A DNA stretch of 64,000 bases from Naegleria gruberi (taxonomy: Eukaryota): the NCBI GenBank assembly GCA_000004985.1, contig GG738861.1. One strand, 5' to 3'. How positions within the stretch are numbered: position 1 is the first letter of the stretch; each line of letters begins with the position of its first letter. A model generated the notes under the pieces. That model searched no databases. It saw only the letters and a program-made list of their open reading frames with translations, and was not told where the DNA came from. The position numbers and the translations under genes are program-made. Shown piece by piece: positions 4,730 through 58,312 of the stretch.

Positions 4730-4802
4730 GCCGACATAGCTCAGTTGGGAGAGCGTAAGACTGAAGATCTTAAGGTCCCTGGTTCGATCCCTGGTGTCGG
4801 CA
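4730..4802 (+). tRNA. tRNA-Phe: tRNA-Phe (anticodon GAA), 73 nt, intronless
   Basis: The sequence is GCCGACATAGCTCAGTTGGGAGAGCGTAAGACTGAAGATCTTAAGGTCCCTGGTTCGATCCCTGGTGTCGGCA. The acceptor stem has 7 base pairs (GCCGACA/TGTCGGC) with discriminator A. The A-box TAGCTCAGTTGG and B-box GGTTCGATCC are present, and the anticodon loop CTGAAGA gives GAA. It is near-identical in arms to classic eukaryotic tRNA-Phe. A T-run follows (ggcaaatttta). Confidence 0.93.
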
Positions 4803-21375: not shown

Positions 21376-24300
21376 ATGATGCAAAATAATTTGGGCCAAC
21401 TTTTGGCAGGCTTTAATAAGAAGCCCTCAAATTCAACTAACAACTCCGGATCTTCATCATCATCAACAACAGGAGGATTCACATTTAAAAGAAAGGCTGA
21501 AACATCACCAAATAATTTTACATCCACAACAACAACAAATAATAGGTATAATAGTTCATCAAGAAATGGTGGTGACACATCAGGTTATGGGTCAATTTTA
21601 AATCCAAAGCCATCATCCACCACAATAGAAGAGCCTACAATTAAAAAGAGAAAAATAGAAGAGGAGGATGAAGAATTAATTGTTGAAGATTTAGATTCCG
21701 ATTCAAATAGTAGCAAACCATCGTCGTTTGTGAGAGCCTCTTCATTACTAAAACCTCCAACAACGACAACAAGTACTAACATAGCCCAACAACAAAAATC
21801 TATGGTACGAATTAAAACAAAACAAGAACCTACTAATAACTCGAGCACTGTCACATTCAAGTCAAATCAAAAAAGGCTTTGGAAGGATAAAGATGAAGAG
21901 GATGCAGAAATGGATGAATTGATTTCATTGACAACCACATCCAATGTAAATAATATTGATGAAATTGATATTACATCCGATGATTTAAATTTTGATGAAT
22001 TAGATGAATCTAATAGTAGTACATCAGCATCAAAACCAAAATTGCCAACTTTTAAAAGTACTTCACTACTTCCTCCACGTAATAATAATAATATTGGCTC
22101 ATCTAATGGTTCAAAGAGCTCAAACAAAACTGAAACAAATATGGTGGATGATGATTTTGTTTTTGAAGAAAATTCAAATCATTCAACAACTAGAACTGAA
22201 ACAATGCCAAAAAAGAAATTTGTAATACCTTCAAAACCAGCAGATACAAATACTGCCAAGCCAAAGAGTTTATTACCAACAAATAGCACCAAGTCAACAA
22301 CAAATTTATTCACCTCACCTTCACTTTCAAAAAGCACACCAAAAAGTGCTTCTAGTAGTAGTAGCAGCAGTGATATTTCAAATTTGAAAAACCTTGTAGA
22401 AAGTTATCAACGATTGACTGCTCATTTTAGTGGACTTCTCAGTGATTGTCTTGATTTTGCTGAACATAATGGAAATTCAGATAATGAAACTCTCCAAGAT
22501 TTCAAAGAGCACAGGGAACAATTGGAAGATTTAAAGAAAACACTAGAAAGTCAAGCTTTGGACTTGCAGTCAGAAAATGTAAATAATCATGATATTTCAA
22601 CACCTTATACACCAGTTAATAATTATTCCAATAATAAGAATACTTCAAATAGCACACCTACCCTCACATCCAAATCTTATACAGAAAATAGTAACACAAG
22701 CCTAAAGTCTACACCCATCTTCTCCTCCAATACATTCACAAAAAGCACTCCAAATGTTTCACCTCCAAATGATGATTATTATGATGATTACAACGATTAC
22801 AACAATACACCACTTGGTGGTGATAACAATCTAGTCCAGATAGAAGATTTGGATGATGAAGATGTTGTTTTTACTGGAAGTCAGTCTAATCATTCAAATT
22901 ATCAAACTAGCACAAACAATAATTTTACAAAGAATAATTATAATAGTAACACTGTAAATATTAATGATGACGATGATGGTTATGGTGCTGTAACTTCAAA
23001 TTATGGTTCAAGCAATTATACATCATATAACGATAATTCATATTCTTCTAAAACAAGTAGTAGCAGGGCAATTGCTAGTAGCAGTAGTTCAAGCAATCAT
23101 GATGCTTCATTTTATGCTAAAGAATCTTTTGAATGGAGTAGTGTTTTAAGAAGTACTTTGAAAGATGTTTTTGGTATTCCATCATTTAGAACTCTACAAC
23201 TTGAAGCTATTAATGCAACATTATCGGGAAGAGATGTTTTTATTATTATGCCAACTGGTGGTGGTAAAAGTCTTTGTTATCAATTACCTGCAATTATTGA
23301 TGTAGGATCAAGTGGAGGTGTAACTATTGTCATTTCTCCTTTACTTTCCTTAATTCAAGATCAAGTTATGTCATTAATCAATTTAGATATTCCAGCAGTA
23401 TTTTTGACAAGTGAACAAGATTCAGAAACTACAAAGGATATTTATAGAGAATTAGGATCTAGAAATCCAAGTTTTAGATTACTTTATGTAACACCAGAAA
23501 AAATTTCTAGGAGTGAAACTTTCTTAAATATTTTGAGAAGATTACATGAAAGAGGATTATTTAAGAGAGTAGTTGTTGATGAAGCTCACTGTGTTAGTAA
23601 TTGGGGTCACGATTTTAGACCTGACTATAGAAAACTAGGTATTTTTAAAGATGAATTTCCAGATGTTCCTTTAATTGCACTTACAGCTACTGCTACAGGA
23701 ATTGTTCAAGAAGACATTATTCATCAACTTAAAATTAAGAATTGTGTATCATTGAAAGGTTCCTTCAATAGAACAAACTTGTATTATGAAGTTAGAAAGA
23801 AACAAACATTAGAAAAAACAGCAAAAGAAATTTCAGAATTTATTAATAAGAAATATCCAAATCAATCAGGAATTATTTATTGTTTGAGTAAGAAGGATTG
23901 TGAAAAAATGGCTGAAGAATTGACCACTCTTGGACATGATGTTGGTGTTTATAACTCTGATATTAAAGCAGCAGACAAACAAGAAGTACATGAAAAATGG
24001 AGCAGAGATGAACTTAAGATTATTGTTGCCACTATTGCTTTTGGTATGGGTATCAATAAGCCTGATGTTAGATTTGTTATTCACCACAGTTTACCAAAAT
24101 CTATTGAAGATTATTATCAAGAATCAGGAAGAGCTGGAAGAGATGGACTACCAAGTCATTGTATTCTTTTCTATTCATATGCAGACAAGGCAAGACAACA
24201 AAAGTTCTTAGAAAATGAAAACACCAACAAGAGTGGCTATGAAAATATTAACAAGATTGTATCATATTGTGAAAATGATTGTGAATGTAGAAGAGTTGTA

Positions 24301-25455
24301 CAATTGAGACACTTTGGTGAATCATTTGATCCAAAAGTCTGTTCAAAAATGTGCGATAATTGTTGTGATGAAACACCTGTTGAAAGAAAGGATTTCACAA
24401 AAGAAGCAGCATCCTTTGTTAAGCTTCTTAAGAGTATTGGTGCTTTTAGATGTACTCTGTCACATGTTGTATCAGTTTGGAGAGGTTCTAACACTCAAAA
24501 AATCAAAACTTTACAACATGATAAGCTTAGTGAGCATGGCTCTGGTAAATCAGTTTCTAAACAAGTTTCAGATTTCCTGGGTTCCAAACTTATTAGTGAG
24601 GGATATATTGAAGAAAAAGTACATGTTAATGATCAGTATGGTGGAAGTTATTCACAAATTGCTGCTTCAAAGAAGGCAGATCTTTTAATTACTGGTAAAG
24701 CTAAGTTTGAAATTCTGGCAAGAAGTAAGAATAAGAAGGCACCAAAGACCTCATTAGAAAAACATCTCAAGTCATCAAAATCAAACTCTTCGAAAGACTT
24801 TGAAAATGCTCTCAAGGAAGCTCTTACACAAAAGAGATCAGAATTGGCTACTGCTAGAGGACAAAGACCTTATGCAATTTTATCAACCAAAATTCTACAA
24901 GATCTCAGTGAAAAACAACCACTCGATATGGAATCTATTGCTTCCATTCCAGGTATGGGTAGACATGTTCTCTCTAACTTTGGTCTCATTTTCTTAGAGT
25001 TAATTCGTTCAATGAGACATAAGGCAATAGGAGATTGTGAACCAATGTCAGAAGCTGAAAAGAAAAAGTTTAGAGAAACCTATAGTAGTACTGGTAGTAG
25101 CAATACCTCAAAACTCAATTTTAAAACAAGTTTTACACGTCCTCAAACTGTCCATGATTCAGATGATGATATTGATGTGGAAAATATAGTTCTAGACGAT
25201 GATGAGCCAACAGCACCATCAAAAAAGGCTTCACTAGGTATTACAAAAGAGGAATGGGATGATATTGGTAATCTTGTGGAAGATTTGGATGACGACTTGT
25301 TGACTGAAAATATTTTCAATAGCACCTCTTCTTCTTCTACTACTCCTAGTGGTGGTTCAACCTCTAACTACCAGTCCACAACTACTAACAATAGTAACAA
25401 TGGCAACAGCTCTACTACGACAACTACTCCAAAGTTTAAATTCAAAAAACTTTAA
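21376..25455 (+). CDS. RecQ-family DNA helicase of the BLM/Sgs1 type (helicase core plus RQC zinc and winged-helix regions plus HRDC), 1359 aa
   Basis: The N-terminus is long and rich in N/S/T/D. The motif-I region is '[33 protein letters not shown]', and the DEAH box is '[19 protein letters not shown]'. The RecQ-Ct zinc cluster is 'CENDCECRR...CSKMCDNCC'. The HRDC-like segment is '[22 protein letters not shown]', followed by an acidic C-terminal tail. Confidence 0.9.
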
Positions 25456-51957: not shown

Positions 51958-53321
51958 TTATTGGGATTTCAAAGTAGAAATTTCCTTTTCCAAAACTTCC
52001 ATTCTCTTCTTGAGTTGTTCCATTTCACGTTCTCTGGCAGCAATCTTGTCACCTTCCTTGAAACCACGTTGAATCATCCAGTCATCGTTCAAGAACTTTG
52101 ACAAATAGTTTCTAATAGAATCTGGCAACAAGACAACAATTCTCTTGTCAGCACTGAGATTGAGCTTCTTAGCAGCAGCAATAGCAGCATACATAGCAGT
52201 ACCAGAGGAACCACCACACAAAAGACCTTCTTCCTTAATCAATTCTCTAGCAATAGTGAATGATGGTTCATCTTCAGTCTTAATCCAAACATCAATCAAG
52301 CTTCTATCCAAAACATCAGGAACAAAGTCATAACCAATACCTTCAACTTGATAAGTTCCGACCTTATCATTTTCAGGATCAGCCAAAAGTGAACCAACTG
52401 GGTCAGCACCAACAACAATGATACCAGGAACCTTTTCCTTGAGCTTCTTTGCAATACCAGAAGCAGTACCACCAGTACCAACACCCATGACAATAACATC
52501 AATTTTACCACCAGTTTGCTTGAGAATTTCTTCAGCAGTACCTTCGTAGTGAGCCATTGGGTTGTCAATATTCTTGTATTGATCCAAAATGTGAGCAGTT
52601 TCACCAATTTCTTCCTTCATACGAGCAGCAACACCAATATGTGAATCAGGTGAGTTCCAGTCAGCTTCAGTTGGAGTTCTGATAATATCAGCACCCAAAC
52701 CCTTCAAGACAGAAACCTTTTCTTGAGACATCTTTTCTGGCAAGGTAATAATCATCTTGTATCCCTTAACAGCAGCAGTCAAAGCCAAACCAATACCAGT
52801 ATTACCAGAGGTTGGTTCAATGAGAGTGTCACCTGGTTTAATACGGCCACTCTTTTCAGCTTCCAAGAGCATACGTTTACCAATTCTATCCTTGACTGAA
52901 CCACCAGCGTTGAAATATTCACATTTAACCAAGACTTCACATTCAACTCCGTGCATCTTTGGAACACGATGCAAACGAACCATTGGGGTGTTACCAATAG
53001 CATCAAGTACGGTATCAAAAATTTGTCTACATTTACAACATCATGGGTTAGAATTTTGTGGGTAACATGCGAGATTGAATTTTGGTAGAATTTTAGTTGA
53101 ATGCATATAACAAAGCACATATATATTCATCAAAGTGGATTTTATGAATTGGATCAAAATTATTGAATTATTATTAATATAAATAATAATTGGATAATTC
53201 AATAACAAAAAACCAAAAGCAACAAACACCACACAAGATGGATTTTTAAAAATAAAAACAACATCGGTTGTTATTCTACGATAGTAATACAATACAATAC
53301 TTACTCTCTGTTGGCAGACAT
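51958..53321 (-). CDS. Cysteine synthase / O-acetylserine sulfhydrylase-type PLP enzyme (about 361 aa); exon 2 is certain, and the 17-nt exon 1 plus 278-nt intron are tentative
   Basis: Exon 2 is 53026..51958 and reads '(E)[24 protein letters not shown]...[19 protein letters not shown]...[10 protein letters not shown]...'. That is the canonical cysK/CBS N-terminus, followed by a short C-terminal coiled tail. The in-frame sequence upstream of 'MVRL' is open but lacks an ATG. The proposed exon 1 is 53321..53305 ('ATG TCT GCC AAC AGA GA'), followed by GTAAGT and ending ...TTCTAACCCATGATGTTGTAAATGTAG at 53027. The phase fits, giving '[22 protein letters not shown]...'. Confidence 0.7.
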
Positions 53322-54099
53322 ATTGTTTATGTAGTGTGCGTTGATTGCTTTCTAAAAGACTCTTTTAAGTGTGTGGGTAAAGAGAAAAAAAATGTATTTT
53401 TTTCTAAAGAATTTTAAATTGTCGCCGCGCAAGCATTAACCAAGTCCTAACTGGGTTCAACACAATATTGGAGGAGTTTTTGCAATGAACCACCAGCTAG
53501 GAGTTAAAAATCTCTATTGTAAACTTGGTTTCCAGCGTCGCTCCTTTTAAATAATCGTCGTTTTGTAAGATGTGGATTCTTTTTGGTGCATAATAAAATA
53601 ATATGGATATGAATTTACAGTTGTTTCAAATCAGATTATTTCATGTTGTTTTTCATTGTGGTTGTTGAAATTTGTGAACGTTCTGGATTTGGGTTGTTGT
53701 AAAGGATCAGCGGAGTTTATTATTTTCTCATGAATTAAAAATATCTAATATAGTTGCTTAAAATTGTGGTGTTTCAACTCTGATCTCATTCCCCTCAATA
53801 TCATTTCACATTTAATAAATATTAAAATTTAACATGACTTGAATTCATTGCTGCCAAAATTGAGCGTCCTGTTAATACTAAAAAATCACAATTTTTCAAT
53901 CCTTCATATTCCAATTTGCAGATTTTAATTTGCAGCTATTAAATTAATCTAATGCACATTGAATAATACTCTTAAAATACATCCAGGATAAAAAAGCTGA
54001 TCAATATGATGTAGATTTATGAATTTCCTCAATTCAAAATCATTATTATGGCTCCAAACCAAAAACATCATCAGCAAGTGGAAACAAACAAAATGAAAG

Positions 54100-54785
54100 T
54101 GTTGATGTGAAGAAGATTGAAAACTACTCTGAGTGGTACTCTACCAAGAGTGATTTCCTTGATTATTATGAAGTGGGGAAACCATTTGGAACAATTGCAC
54201 AAATGAACTTATGAAGAAATTCTTGCGGTTCCAGTTATTGAGGGTAGGAAGACTGAAACTGAAAAGTTTTCTGCCGCAGATTTCACAACAACCATTGAGG
54301 CTTTCATTCCAACAAACGGAAGAGCTGATCAAGCTGCCATAAGTTGGGTGTTATGATCATGGTGATGACAAGGATATGGTCTTGCCACCAAGTTGCCTTC
54401 ACTCTAGTTGTTCTTATTCCTTTTTCTGTAAGAATAAGGATAATAGTCAACGGAAATTTTCACTCTCCTAGACCAAAATGGGATTCGTATTAAGATTGAT
54501 TATCGTTTGGAAAAGACTCAAATTGGGAAATTCAAATATTGGGAACTTTATGGTATTCCATTGAGAATTGAAATTGGTCTAAAGGAAACTGGCCAAGCCA
54601 AGCTCTGTAGAAGAGACAATGGAGAAATGGACAGTCTCTCTTGATCAACCCACTGCTCAATATATCAATGGCACTTTGGATATGATTCACAATTCCATGT
54701 TGGAAAAAGCTTCACTGGGTGGTTGTAAAGTTTTCTGTACAGAATTGACTGACAGAAAACCAAACAAGAGGGCTATTTGGTAAAT
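54100..54785 (+). pseudogene. Decayed fragments of a class-II prolyl-tRNA synthetase (eukaryote/archaeal type)
   Basis: Out-of-frame, stop-interrupted segments align to ProRS. 'ENYSEWYSTKSDFLDYYEV' matches '[22 protein letters not shown]'. '[28 protein letters not shown]' matches '[28 protein letters not shown]'. '[10 protein letters not shown]...' matches 'VMTMVHGDNMG'. 'KYWELYGIPLRIEIGLKETGQAKLCRRDNGEM' matches '[34 protein letters not shown]'. The whole catalytic core (motifs 2 and 3) between the first two fragments is missing. Confidence 0.7.
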
Positions 54786-55391
54786 TGAATAAACAAATTA
54801 GATTTAAAGTGTGTAAGTAAACAAGGGACAATTTTCTAATGCTCATAGTTTTTCATTAAGGGATTCAAGGAGATTAAGTTTCTCTAGGTTCTTCTGAATA
54901 TAAGTAGACCTTAAAAAATAGCTGAAAGCTCAACATTTTTTCTCATGAAGTCCCTTTCCTCAAATCCATTCACTATGTTGTTTAGTATTAGAGAAATTGA
55001 TAGGACTTCAATTTTAGCAATCATGCAAGCATATTGAACAAGAAAGAAGCAAGATAGTGGAGAAGAAAAACCAGGGGTAACATCATTTACTCAGGAATAA
55101 ACTTCTTCTTGATAAATTTTCATTAAGAGAGTAGAATCTATCACGATGTTGCAAAGACATAAAAGGATCGGAACCTAAGACAGTGTTTTGTAATTGCCAT
55201 TTTCTATACCAAATCAAATCTCTAAAATACTGTAACATTGGTTCTGTACAGGAAACGTCTGATGCTTTTATTGACCAAAAAAGTTCACTTTAATAATCAC
55301 AAACATCAACAACAAGATGTGTAACCAACCTAAAATAAATGAATCCAACTACCTAGCGCACAGACACTGGAAACTAAACGAAAAAAATTCA

Positions 55392-56597
55392 ATGAGAACA
55401 ATCCTTGTTTTATTGGCTTTGTGTGTTTTAGCACTCGCTGTGAATGGTGCTGACATTAGTTTTATCAGCTCATTTGATGATTATAAACTTTCTTGCAACT
55501 TAAAGACAAAGAATAATACAGTGAATCCAATCTCATCTGGTTATTTGGTTGGGTTATATGCTGAGGGTGGCTCTAGCTATCGTTTGGCCATGATTGACTT
55601 GGACAGTAATGCCATTACTTACATTGGTAATGATGTCTTTAATTCTTATTCATTGGGTGGTGTCGCCATCGACCCAATTAACCACAGATTATTCATCATG
55701 GTTGTTCCATCTCAAACTCCAACAATGAGAACATACAGTCTATTAACTGGTAAAATGTTGTATCAAGTGAATACTTCTGAAATTTCCAACTTGGTTTTTG
55801 AACCAGCATTGGGTAATCTCTATGGATTAGGTTACAATGATTCAATGGTCACAATTTTGGATATTGATTGGGAAACTGGTGAGGATACAATTGTTGCAAC
55901 TACTCCACTCAAAGGATCTACCAATATGATTCGTAATATTAATCCAGCAACATCTGTGATGTATATTTATGGATATGATAGTACCTATTTCAATACTATG
56001 ATTGCTGTCAATTTAACAAGTGGAAGTTGGAAATATTTCAATCCTCCTTCTATTACTTCCTATGTTGCTTTGTTTTCAAATGGTTATCAAGGTAAATCCA
56101 ATGTCCTTGCAATTGCTGAATACGAAGGAAAATATGCTCCTGTTTCCATTGATAGCAATACAAATGTCACTGTAATTGGTTCAACAAGGTTTAATTCATT
56201 GGTCCTGTCTGACAAGGCTTATGACGTTAAGGAAAATGTCATTATTGGAACATTGGAAGATACAAGCAAGATTGTAGTTCTTAATATGACTAGTGGATTG
56301 ATTGTAAAACAAATTCCATTGAATAGTGGTGCTTCTCTTGGACCTGTCTCATACCAACAAATTTGTGTCTGTTGTATTGCTTCTCAAAACACAAGAAGTA
56401 TCTATGGTGGTTCATTGGACAAGTCAATTGTTCTTCCATGTCAAACCAATACTGCATCATCCACCAAAGTAATTGGTACTACTAGTAGTAATGGTACTAT
56501 CAAACCATCTCAGAGCAGAGTTAGTTCTTCCAATTCAAATTTCAATATTTCACTTGTATTCATTGTGATTGTAGGATTTTTGATGGGTCTGTTCTAA
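55392..56597 (+). CDS. Secreted or GPI-anchored Ser/Thr-rich surface protein (about 401 aa from the ATG at 55392)
   Basis: It has a cleavable signal peptide 'MRTILVLLALCVLALAVNGADI', many N-glycosylation sequons, and a Ser/Thr-rich stalk 'TNTASSTKVIGTTSSNGTIKPSQSRVSSSNSN'. The hydrophobic C-terminus 'ISLVFIVIVGFLMGLF*' is consistent with a GPI-attachment signal. The upstream ATG at 55317 would add 25 hydrophilic residues. Confidence 0.55.
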   Translation: MRTILVLLALCVLALAVNGADISFISSFDDYKLSCNLKTKNNTVNPISSGYLVGLYAEGGSSYRLAMIDLDSNAITYIGNDVFNSYSLGGVAIDPINHRLFIMVVPSQTPTMRTYSLLTGKMLYQVNTSEISNLVFEPALGNLYGLGYNDSMVTILDIDWETGEDTIVATTPLKGSTNMIRNINPATSVMYIYGYDSTYFNTMIAVNLTSGSWKYFNPPSITSYVALFSNGYQGKSNVLAIAEYEGKYAPVSIDSNTNVTVIGSTRFNSLVLSDKAYDVKENVIIGTLEDTSKIVVLNMTSGLIVKQIPLNSGASLGPVSYQQICVCCIASQNTRSIYGGSLDKSIVLPCQTNTASSTKVIGTTSSNGTIKPSQSRVSSSNSNFNISLVFIVIVGFLMGLF

Positions 56598-56617
56598 ATA
56601 GATCATGTAGAATAAAA

Positions 56618-58241
56618 TTACTTTCCAAATATTTTTAATCTTTGAATTTCCAATTGTGATTGAATATGATTTAAATCAGTGTTTTGATCCAAAAGCACTT
56701 TGGTTTGAGTTGAATCATTCATTAGAGTGAAGTGCTCAAATAAAGGTTGTTTTAAAAGGATGGAATCATCCATCTCCGTGTTAAAGGTGTCTGAATTTTC
56801 TTGTGAAATTTTCATAGTATCTGAGAGCACCACAAAAGGAATATTGTAAAATCTGGAAATCGAATAGAGTACGCTTGTGCCAGTCTTGTTAGAAATTACA
56901 ATGTCTCCATGACTATAATGGATTGAATCTGATCCTACACACATAAGATCAACCTTTCCAGAACGTGAGAGTAAAGCAACTGCTGCTTCAGTGCAAACTT
57001 GAACTCTTAGATTTTTGATACCCTGATCTAAGGCAAAGTCCTTCAGAGATTTAGCTGTTTTGTACCCTTCCTTTTCTGGCTGAGACTCTGTACAATAGAT
57101 GGTTAAATCAATGGATGCATGTTTTGCATGTAAGTCTAACATTAAATCTTTCAATGATTTAATAACAACACTGCTCCAACTGTGGGTCAATATTGAGATT
57201 TTCTGGGTGTTATCTTTTAAAAATTCTGATTTCACATAATTTTGAAACTTATTTGATAGTAACTGAGTATTGTTTGATATCTTAATGCCAAATTTGTTCA
57301 ATCTGTCTTTCATTTTCTGTACCATATTTTCAAAAGTTTGTTCAGAAATTTGTTTGACAATACTATCCTGATCAAATTGTAATTCACCATTCATTATTTC
57401 TACAAGAGATTGAACAGCCACATTCCTAATCATTGGCATTTCAATTCTACATTGATCTAAAATCCAAACAATGTCTCTCAGTTTCGAAGTTAAAAAAACA
57501 GCTCTCATGCTATCCATATCTATTGAAGAATTCATCAATTTGAAATAATCTGGTATATCTTCAGATGAAAATAAGTTCAAGGCCTTTTTCATAATATCTA
57601 TCGTTTTCAAAGCAATGGTAGTTGCACCATCTGTAAAATTATTAACAATGGTATTGTCTATTTCTACCAATAATTCAGTCTCCAATCCATAGAAAAAGTA
57701 TAATCTGTGAAGAGTGTCTCTTAGATTGGGAACTGTTTCATGTAGGGTGGGAGTGGTGCTGTCATTCATACCCTTCCTCAGAAATTGCTCAGTATCAAAA
57801 ACATTGAATGAATCGTGTTCCCAATCAATCTTGAATCCTAAATTATCAAGTTGGCTAGGGATATCTTTTGAATTTTCTACTGACAATCTAAATAGAAAAG
57901 GATAAACAATAAATCCCTTTCCATTATTTAAAGGCAAATATTGTGGACGACCACTTCGGATGAAGTTCAAATGTTTTCCAACTTGTAATTGTGTTTCTTC
58001 TTGGATTTCTCTGAAGGCACTCCATCGGGCTTTCCACAAAATAATCACCAACCCTATAATCAAACCGATCATTTGAAGAATAATCCACAGGTGGATTGTT
58101 AACCAAGTCAATAGAACCAGAAATTGAAGCCCACATTTTCGGATAAGAATTAACCTTCTCCGATCTTTTAAATAGTAGAATATGTGATTTTTCTTCCTTT
58201 ATCACTTCAATAAAGCCAGTGGCTACTCTTCTCCATTTCAT
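56618..58241 (-). CDS. Nudix hydrolase domain fused to an eIF-2B / methylthioribose-1-phosphate-isomerase-like (IF-2B family) domain; the reading frame switches once near 58060-58115 (unannotated intron or frameshift)
   Basis: The upstream ORF (58241..57924) reads 'MKWRRVATGFIEVIKEEKSHILLFKRSEKVNSYPKMWASISGSID', which looks like Nudix beta-strands and the 'W.lPGG' region. The Nudix box continues in the other frame as '...AFREIQEETQLQVG'. Downstream, '...ILTHSWSSVV...IYCTESQPEKEGYKTAKSL...MCVGSDSIHYSHGDIVISNKTGTSVLYSISRFYNIPFVVLSDTMKI' aligns to the IF-2B-family core 'VLTHCNTG...ETRP.lQG.RLTa.EL...GADRv.aNGDtaNKIGTy.lA..A....IPFyV'. A candidate 46- or 55-nt intron with a GTTTGA donor would join the frames. 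Confidence 0.55.
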
Positions 58242-58312
58242 TTTTTTAAGTTTTGATTTAACTTGAATCTACATATTAAATAAATTAATTTGAATATTTC
58301 CTGATTATAATA

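Follow-up and report, generated by a model that had tools for sequence, protein, structure and literature searches.

The window analysed here is a 64,000-nucleotide stretch of the Naegleria gruberi NEG-M genome (GenBank assembly GCA_000004985.1, contig GG738861.1), and its positions 54056–54784 on the plus strand very probably constitute a non-functional pseudogene of prolyl-tRNA synthetase (ProRS), here designated psiProRS. This relic would be a duplicate of the host gene, lying in the divergent spacer between the genes for cystathionine beta-synthase (CBS) and the predicted protein EFC45813. The parent is the cytosolic, eukaryote/archaeal-type class IIa ProRS of the N. gruberi lineage. Three features by which pseudogenes are recognized were observed, namely homology to a functional gene in the same genome, disabling lesions, and relaxed constraint. 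An earlier note, made from the sequence alone, had described a gene-poor island at 53340–55316 holding a shattered ProRS pseudogene; the pseudogene is borne out by the homology and lesions described below, whereas the extent has to be reduced to its central part.

Homology and anatomy of psiProRS

Similarity of the relic to ProRS was observed at the levels of both translation and DNA. The plus-strand translation stitched across reading frames matches the ProRS of N. fowleri (PDB 6NAB; PMC7990177) with E=1.7e-59. It also contains the Pfam domain HGTP_anticodon (PF03129, E=9.5e-9), which is nonetheless cut by a frameshift, and gives no match to the class II core family PF00587. Individual fragments are recovered by tblastn with the N. 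gruberi ProRS at E-values as low as 4e-22. In a frameshift-aware dynamic-programming alignment of this 575-residue enzyme to the window DNA the score is 799.5, compared with 110–119 for shuffled DNA, and 240 collinear codons on one strand are paired, 75% of them identical; thus, the collinear order of fragments claimed by the earlier note is confirmed. When the enzymes of N. fowleri and N. gruberi are used as tblastn queries, ProRS-derived sequence is confined to 54056–54784, no similarity being detected in 53340–54055 or 54785–55316, so that the first ~700 bp of the proposed island and the part after 54784 contain no ProRS remnant. The same program found no second ProRS copy elsewhere in the window. 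The functional N. gruberi ProRS (XP_002680626, EFC47882, D2V5Y9; P0124 in our protein set), the intact copy that the earlier note had suggested looking for, is encoded on a different scaffold (695,587 bp). When the 252-residue stitched relic was itself used as a query, none of the matches listed was longer than 439 residues or more than 42% identical, and the Naegleria enzymes were missed.

On the parent enzyme, Pfam domains place the class II core (tRNA-synt_2b) at residues 144–316, the anticodon-binding domain at 335–426, and the C-terminal domain at 459–575. The relic keeps approximately 240–250 of the 575 codons, arranged in blocks that we denote A to F. Block A (54056–54175) corresponds to residues 29–77 of the N-terminal region ahead of the catalytic core and lacks codons 64–66 (QVI). 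It abuts directly on block B (54177–54353), which comprises a segment of the class II core together with short remnants (residues 79, 126–129, 225–274, and 304–317). Between the two blocks, residues 80–224 (the first half of the catalytic core) have been lost, in agreement with the earlier observation that the core is missing between the first two segments. An in-frame TGA at 54204–54206 (codon 229) lies inside well-aligned block B, and residues 275–315 are deleted toward its 3' end. Block C (54355–54450; residues 318–350) contains the last part of the core (HGDDKG..LPPRVA) followed by the linker; its reading is spread over three frames, with frameshifts at about 54354, 54391, 54423, and 54452. 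The anticodon-binding domain and the next helix (54453–54711; residues 352–445) are formed by block D (54453–54623; residues 352–415) and block E (54625–54711; residues 417–445), separated by a frameshift at about 54624. Block F (54712–54784; residues 549–573) represents what is left of the C-terminal domain, namely its last ~25 residues. This block is fused in frame to residue 445, residues 446–548 being deleted, and carries a frameshift at about 54769. All blocks lie on the plus strand. The domain labels of the earlier note were only roughly right; the retained parts are residues 29–79, 225–274, 304–350, 352–445, and the last ~25.

In total, the relic contains one in-frame TGA, at least seven frameshifts, the three large deletions (residues 80–224, 275–315, and 446–548), and several small deletions. 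The anticodon-binding domain is mostly kept, whereas the losses comprise the first half of the core, a part of the core by motif 3, and almost the entire C-terminal domain. Among the features expected of a functional enzyme, only the HGTP anticodon-binding domain (PF03129) was found. There is neither an intact class II core with motifs 1, 2, and 3 (PF00587) nor a continuous open reading frame (ORF), the longest ORF of the island having 69 codons, and of the ProRS C-terminal domain (PF09180) only the terminal residues of block F are left. The relic is unable to encode an enzyme, because it has lost the first half of the core together with most of the C-terminal domain and what remains is distributed over three frames.

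Collinear fragments on one strand would also be produced by an intact ProRS gene heavily split by introns, the alternative raised by the earlier note itself. Neighboring fragments of the relic are, however, only 0–2 nucleotides apart, which leaves no room for introns and thus excludes a gene of this kind. About 300 of the 575 parent codons, including 145 codons of the core, have no counterpart anywhere in the window, a stop codon interrupts a well-aligned block, frameshifting insertions and deletions (indels) distinguish the two alleles described below, and a complete 575-residue ProRS is encoded elsewhere. The probability that the fragments are exons is accordingly negligible.

Descent and continuing decay of the relic

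The relic is most similar to the ProRS of its own host (75.7% identity over 239 retained columns). Over the retained columns its identity to other enzymes decreases from 61.5% for a metagenomic Naegleria to 59.8% for N. fowleri, 54.4% for Willaertia, and 42.1% for Acrasis. A metagenome scan with the N. gruberi ProRS yielded only relatives at most 61% identical. The N. fowleri ProRS (PDB 6NAB/6UYH; PMC7990177) is the best solved-structure match to the relic and has the same three-domain layout as the parent family, but at this level of identity it is an orthologue of the parent rather than the source. The functional N. gruberi ProRS shares its segment order with the relic, the two differing in scaffold, lesions, and lost domains.

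N. fowleri, Naegleria sp., and Willaertia served as outgroups for polarizing the residue changes. As a result, 37 derived residues were found to be common to the relic and the functional N. gruberi ProRS, whereas the private changes number 35 in the relic and 7 in the functional enzyme. At 66 columns with at least 90% conservation among 119 other ProRS, the functional gene departs from the consensus at 5 positions, and the relic departs at the same 5 and at 11 more (16 in total). The shared derived residues and the unequal numbers of private changes together indicate a late origin in the N. gruberi lineage and a loss of constraint. By this comparison, the relic was copied from the host gene at a late point of the N. 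gruberi branch, when most of the ProRS change specific to N. gruberi had already taken place, and has since evolved approximately five times faster at the protein level, matching the expectation for a sequence without constraint.

The same relic was observed in a contig of an environmental metagenome (ENA, ERZ929261; 4,870 bp, hereafter L089), which was reached via a member of the EFC45813 protein cluster and aligns to window positions 53461–58276. The three large deletions, the frameshifts, and the TGA are all common to L089 and NEG-M. Other lesions are confined to one allele. Ten base pairs after 54066 (AACAACAAGG, coding ..QQQG) are gone in NEG-M and present in L089. Another 30 bp, missing from NEG-M after 54779, ran from ..GRSY through the stop codon into the 3' flank; L089 still has TTTGGTAGATCATACTAA, that is, the authentic end of ProRS (FGRSY and stop). 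This 30-bp deletion of NEG-M falls between the direct repeats CTATTTG and CTATTTTG. L089, in turn, has lost 13 bp at 54282 and acquired a new stop (54264 A>T). Within the 729 bp of the relic, the alleles differ altogether by 7 substitutions and 3 indels (53 bp), as compared with 9 substitutions and no indels in the adjacent 1,281-bp coding sequence. The most variable part of the locus is the downstream spacer (54785–55316), with 19 substitutions and 6 indels in 532 bp. Since each allele has acquired lesions separately, decay is still under way and is dominated by deletions; the relic is thus decaying independently in different strains.

The presence of the same relic in the same context in an independent metagenome assembly rules out an assembly artefact. 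A related concern is that the fragment was captured from a giant virus, given that a Naegleria-infecting giant virus, Naegleriavirus, encodes and packages a ProRS (PMC11043551). The 37 derived residues in common with the host enzyme and the 75.7% identity to it point instead to the host gene as the source and exclude such a capture, and a scan of viral contigs, a method of limited sensitivity, found no relative. An artefact of assembly or sequencing, or a fragment captured from a virus, is thus an explanation of vanishingly small probability.

The functional N. gruberi ProRS shows a rate peculiarity of its own. In a Tajima relative-rate test with Willaertia as the outgroup, 69 unique changes were assigned to the N. 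gruberi enzyme and 28 to that of N. fowleri (p=3e-5), whereas CBS, used as a rate comparison, gave equal rates (14 vs. 12). The metagenomic Naegleria ProRS is also faster than that of N. fowleri, so that a slow rate in the latter species may account for part of the effect. Judged by eye, the functional N. gruberi ProRS also appears to have roughly 30 extra residues in its C-terminal domain.

The intergenic island and its neighbors

The longest part of the window free of stop-to-stop ORFs of 100 codons or more extends from 53365 to 55274 (1,910 bp). The second longest measures 741 bp, and ORFs of this size cover 85% of the window. The view of the earlier note, that this is the one stretch of the window without a long ORF, is supported in this sense. 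The divergent intergenic region itself, between the CBS gene and EFC45813, is 1,995 bp long.

The left border of the island is formed by the CBS gene (EFC45925/D2VBK6; 51958–53321, minus strand), which consists of exon 1 (53321–53305, with the start codon at 53321–53319), an intron (53304–53027, GTAAGT...AG), and exon 2 (53026–51958). The spliced product (MSANREQIFDTV..., 361 residues) is an exact match to XP_002678669/D2VBK6. It represents a short form of the enzyme, containing the PALP domain only, without the C-terminal CBS/Bateman pair; many of the listed eukaryotic homologues carry PF00571. The right border is formed by EFC45813 (XP_002678557, D2VBK7; 55317–56597, plus strand), which encodes a predicted protein of 426 residues, again an exact match, to which Pfam assigns no family. 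The products of six ATG-initiated ORFs of the window match N. gruberi NEG-M proteins (EFC/XP entries) exactly, on a scaffold of 507,294 bp, and such exact matches identify the window as NEG-M. The HMG-box gene, CBS, and the 426-residue protein are numbered consecutively in UniProt (D2VBK5, D2VBK6, and D2VBK7), and the EFC numbers also run consecutively on each strand; therefore, the annotation has no protein model in the spacer from CBS to EFC45813, and the ProRS relic appears to be unannotated in N. gruberi NEG-M.

Further along the window, a gene for a NUDIX/IF-2B-like fusion protein (56618–58241, minus strand) forms one continuous ORF of 541 residues in L089. In NEG-M a CA is absent at 58017, and this 2-bp gap splits the gene into overlapping ORFs (57924–58241 and 56618–58111); it is either a sequencing error of the reference or a true frameshift of the laboratory strain. 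The RNA ligase RtcB (EFC45815; 59548–61332) is also matched exactly. The sole RNA gene found in the window by Rfam and ARAGORN is that of tRNA-Phe (GAA) at 4730–4802 on the plus strand.

The remaining parts of the island are the upstream spacer (53322–54055), presumably holding the promoter and 5' region of CBS, and the downstream spacer (54785–55316), presumably holding those of EFC45813. Pfam gave no matches in six frames of 53324–54060, nor in four of the six frames of 54785–55316 (all three minus frames and one plus frame). In the upstream spacer, Rfam at E<=1 returned nothing credible. A non-coding RNA was considered for a slightly GC-richer patch at 53415–53575 and rejected; no Rfam match was obtained, and the folding z-scores of the two strands (−1.78 and +0.70) are unremarkable. 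Near 53749 and 53920, L089 has segments of 45 and 11 bp that are absent from NEG-M, and this spacer, like the relic, differs between the alleles mainly by length changes. The repeat and transposable-element content of the island, which the earlier note had proposed to check, turned out to be nil, as none were found.

A further reading antisense to the downstream spacer had been described as protein-like. The ORF does exist (55289–55086, minus strand, 68 codons, ..PMLQYFRDLIWYRKWQLQNTVLGSDPFMSLQHRDRFYSL..), and behind it comes an ORF of 59 codons in a different frame, which could speak for a small orphan protein encoded on the minus strand of 54900–55290. Its length, however, is that expected by chance, since ORFs of at least 69 codons were present in 91% of composition-matched random sequences in a simulation. 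It has no Pfam match, and the sole match among 1.84 billion representative proteins is a junk ORF inflated by tandem repeats (E=6.6e-4). In L089 it is disrupted by indels of 1, 2, 3, and 1 bp and by stops, and it lies in the part of the locus that diverges most between the alleles. An orphan protein is thus very improbable, and the antisense ORF would be a product of chance. The rest of the island would be plain spacer, and the island would be large simply because the relic pads an ordinary bidirectional promoter region.

Origin and significance of the pseudogene

ProRS was copied late in the N. gruberi lineage; the copy then lost constraint, and small and large deletions removed more than half of its codons. 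Its most likely source is a duplication or rearrangement at the DNA level, an origin hinted at by the occurrence of RtcB near ProRS in Willaertia as well. Detectable homology begins near codon 29–39, and the copy may therefore have been truncated at the 5' end and non-functional from the start. Two considerations weigh against parts of this account. On the 5' side, homology ends within an N-terminal extension that evolves fast and is of low complexity, which makes the truncated reading weak, and a transcript of the relic may have a non-coding role.

An alternative is that psiProRS is a processed pseudogene, formed by the insertion of a 5'-truncated ProRS cDNA between CBS and EFC45813 and subsequent decay. 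The relic and its parent reside on different scaffolds, and detectable homology is essentially restricted to coding sequence, from about codon 29–39 to the stop. The relic has no introns, but their absence is uninformative, since ProRS is an uninterrupted ORF in N. fowleri, the metagenomic Naegleria, and Willaertia. An AATAAA approximately 35 nucleotides past the ancestral stop is followed by a mildly A-rich stretch; yet in neither allele is there an A-run longer than 6 past that stop. Thus, of the hallmarks of processed pseudogenes, the poly(A) tail is lacking, and so is the target-site duplication, as no direct repeats flank 54056–54784, although a short duplication could have eroded at ~25% protein divergence. 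No transposable element or repeat was found nearby, and a retro-copy leaves unexplained why RtcB is located near both the Willaertia ProRS and the relic. Taken together, these observations make retroposition possible but unlikely.

The proximity of RtcB underlies a second alternative, according to which the relic stands at, or was dragged along with, the ancestral neighborhood of ProRS. A staggered-break rearrangement would have duplicated ProRS, the RtcB-linked copy losing its 5' end and promoter and decaying, and the intact copy being located elsewhere today. In Willaertia magna, RtcB (L006, 13949–15523) is located 2.3 kb downstream of the functional ProRS. In the window, RtcB is located 4.8 kb downstream of the relic, its product being about 68% identical to that of Willaertia. 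The chance of such a coincidence was estimated at roughly 0.005, given a 12-kb target, about 14 neighboring genes tested, and a genome size that we take to be about 41 Mb. Compared with N. lovaniensis and Willaertia, synteny is broken on the CBS side of the relic; their CBS loci share only CBS with the window, except for RecQ in N. lovaniensis.

Several observations speak against this scenario. The relative orientation of RtcB is opposite in Willaertia and N. gruberi, different genes lie in between, and a search for remains of the Willaertia RlaP gene found none. Functional ProRS sits immediately downstream of Surp/PRP21 in N. fowleri, the metagenomic Naegleria, and Willaertia, and this upstream neighbor, conserved in the three species, is absent from the window; nor is there an RtcB within 10 kb of the N. 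fowleri ProRS. Searches around the relic by tblastn with the ProRS-neighbor genes of N. fowleri, Naegleria sp., and Willaertia (a small upstream gene, a serpin, RlaP, and a 185-residue gene) yielded nothing significant. The scenario as a whole is therefore rather improbable. The ProRS–RtcB proximity may be a remnant of ancestral linkage. On the CBS side, the RecQ-type helicase (window 21376–25455; L007, 11719–16026) lies directly downstream of CBS in N. lovaniensis and is differently oriented and ~28 kb off in N. gruberi; thus, the CBS region has been rearranged between these two species.

An extension of the linkage argument holds that the relic marks the ancestral, RtcB-linked ProRS position of the Naegleria/Willaertia ancestor and that the working N. 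gruberi ProRS is the relocated copy. We consider this doubtful. If true, this would document the move of an essential aminoacyl-tRNA synthetase to a new place in the genome through duplication and degeneration, the dead original being still recognizable and still eroding in wild strains.

Returning to the interpretation of psiProRS as a decayed duplicate of the host gene, the relic is a real but ordinary pseudogene, involving no new mechanism and no new kind of element. It resembles other eukaryotic pseudogenes of housekeeping genes in being a dispersed copy with disablement, lost constraint, deletion-led decay, and strain-polymorphic lesions. In the literature, we found no paper describing this pseudogene. 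The relic accounts for an anomalous 2-kb gap in a compact protist genome and adds an unannotated pseudogene to the annotation of N. gruberi NEG-M. Its two alleles provide a small, clean view of neutral decay, in which deletions dominate, at least one of them lies between short direct repeats, and lesions are independent between strains. The relic is thus useful for estimating the bias among indels and, as a neutral marker, for typing strains.

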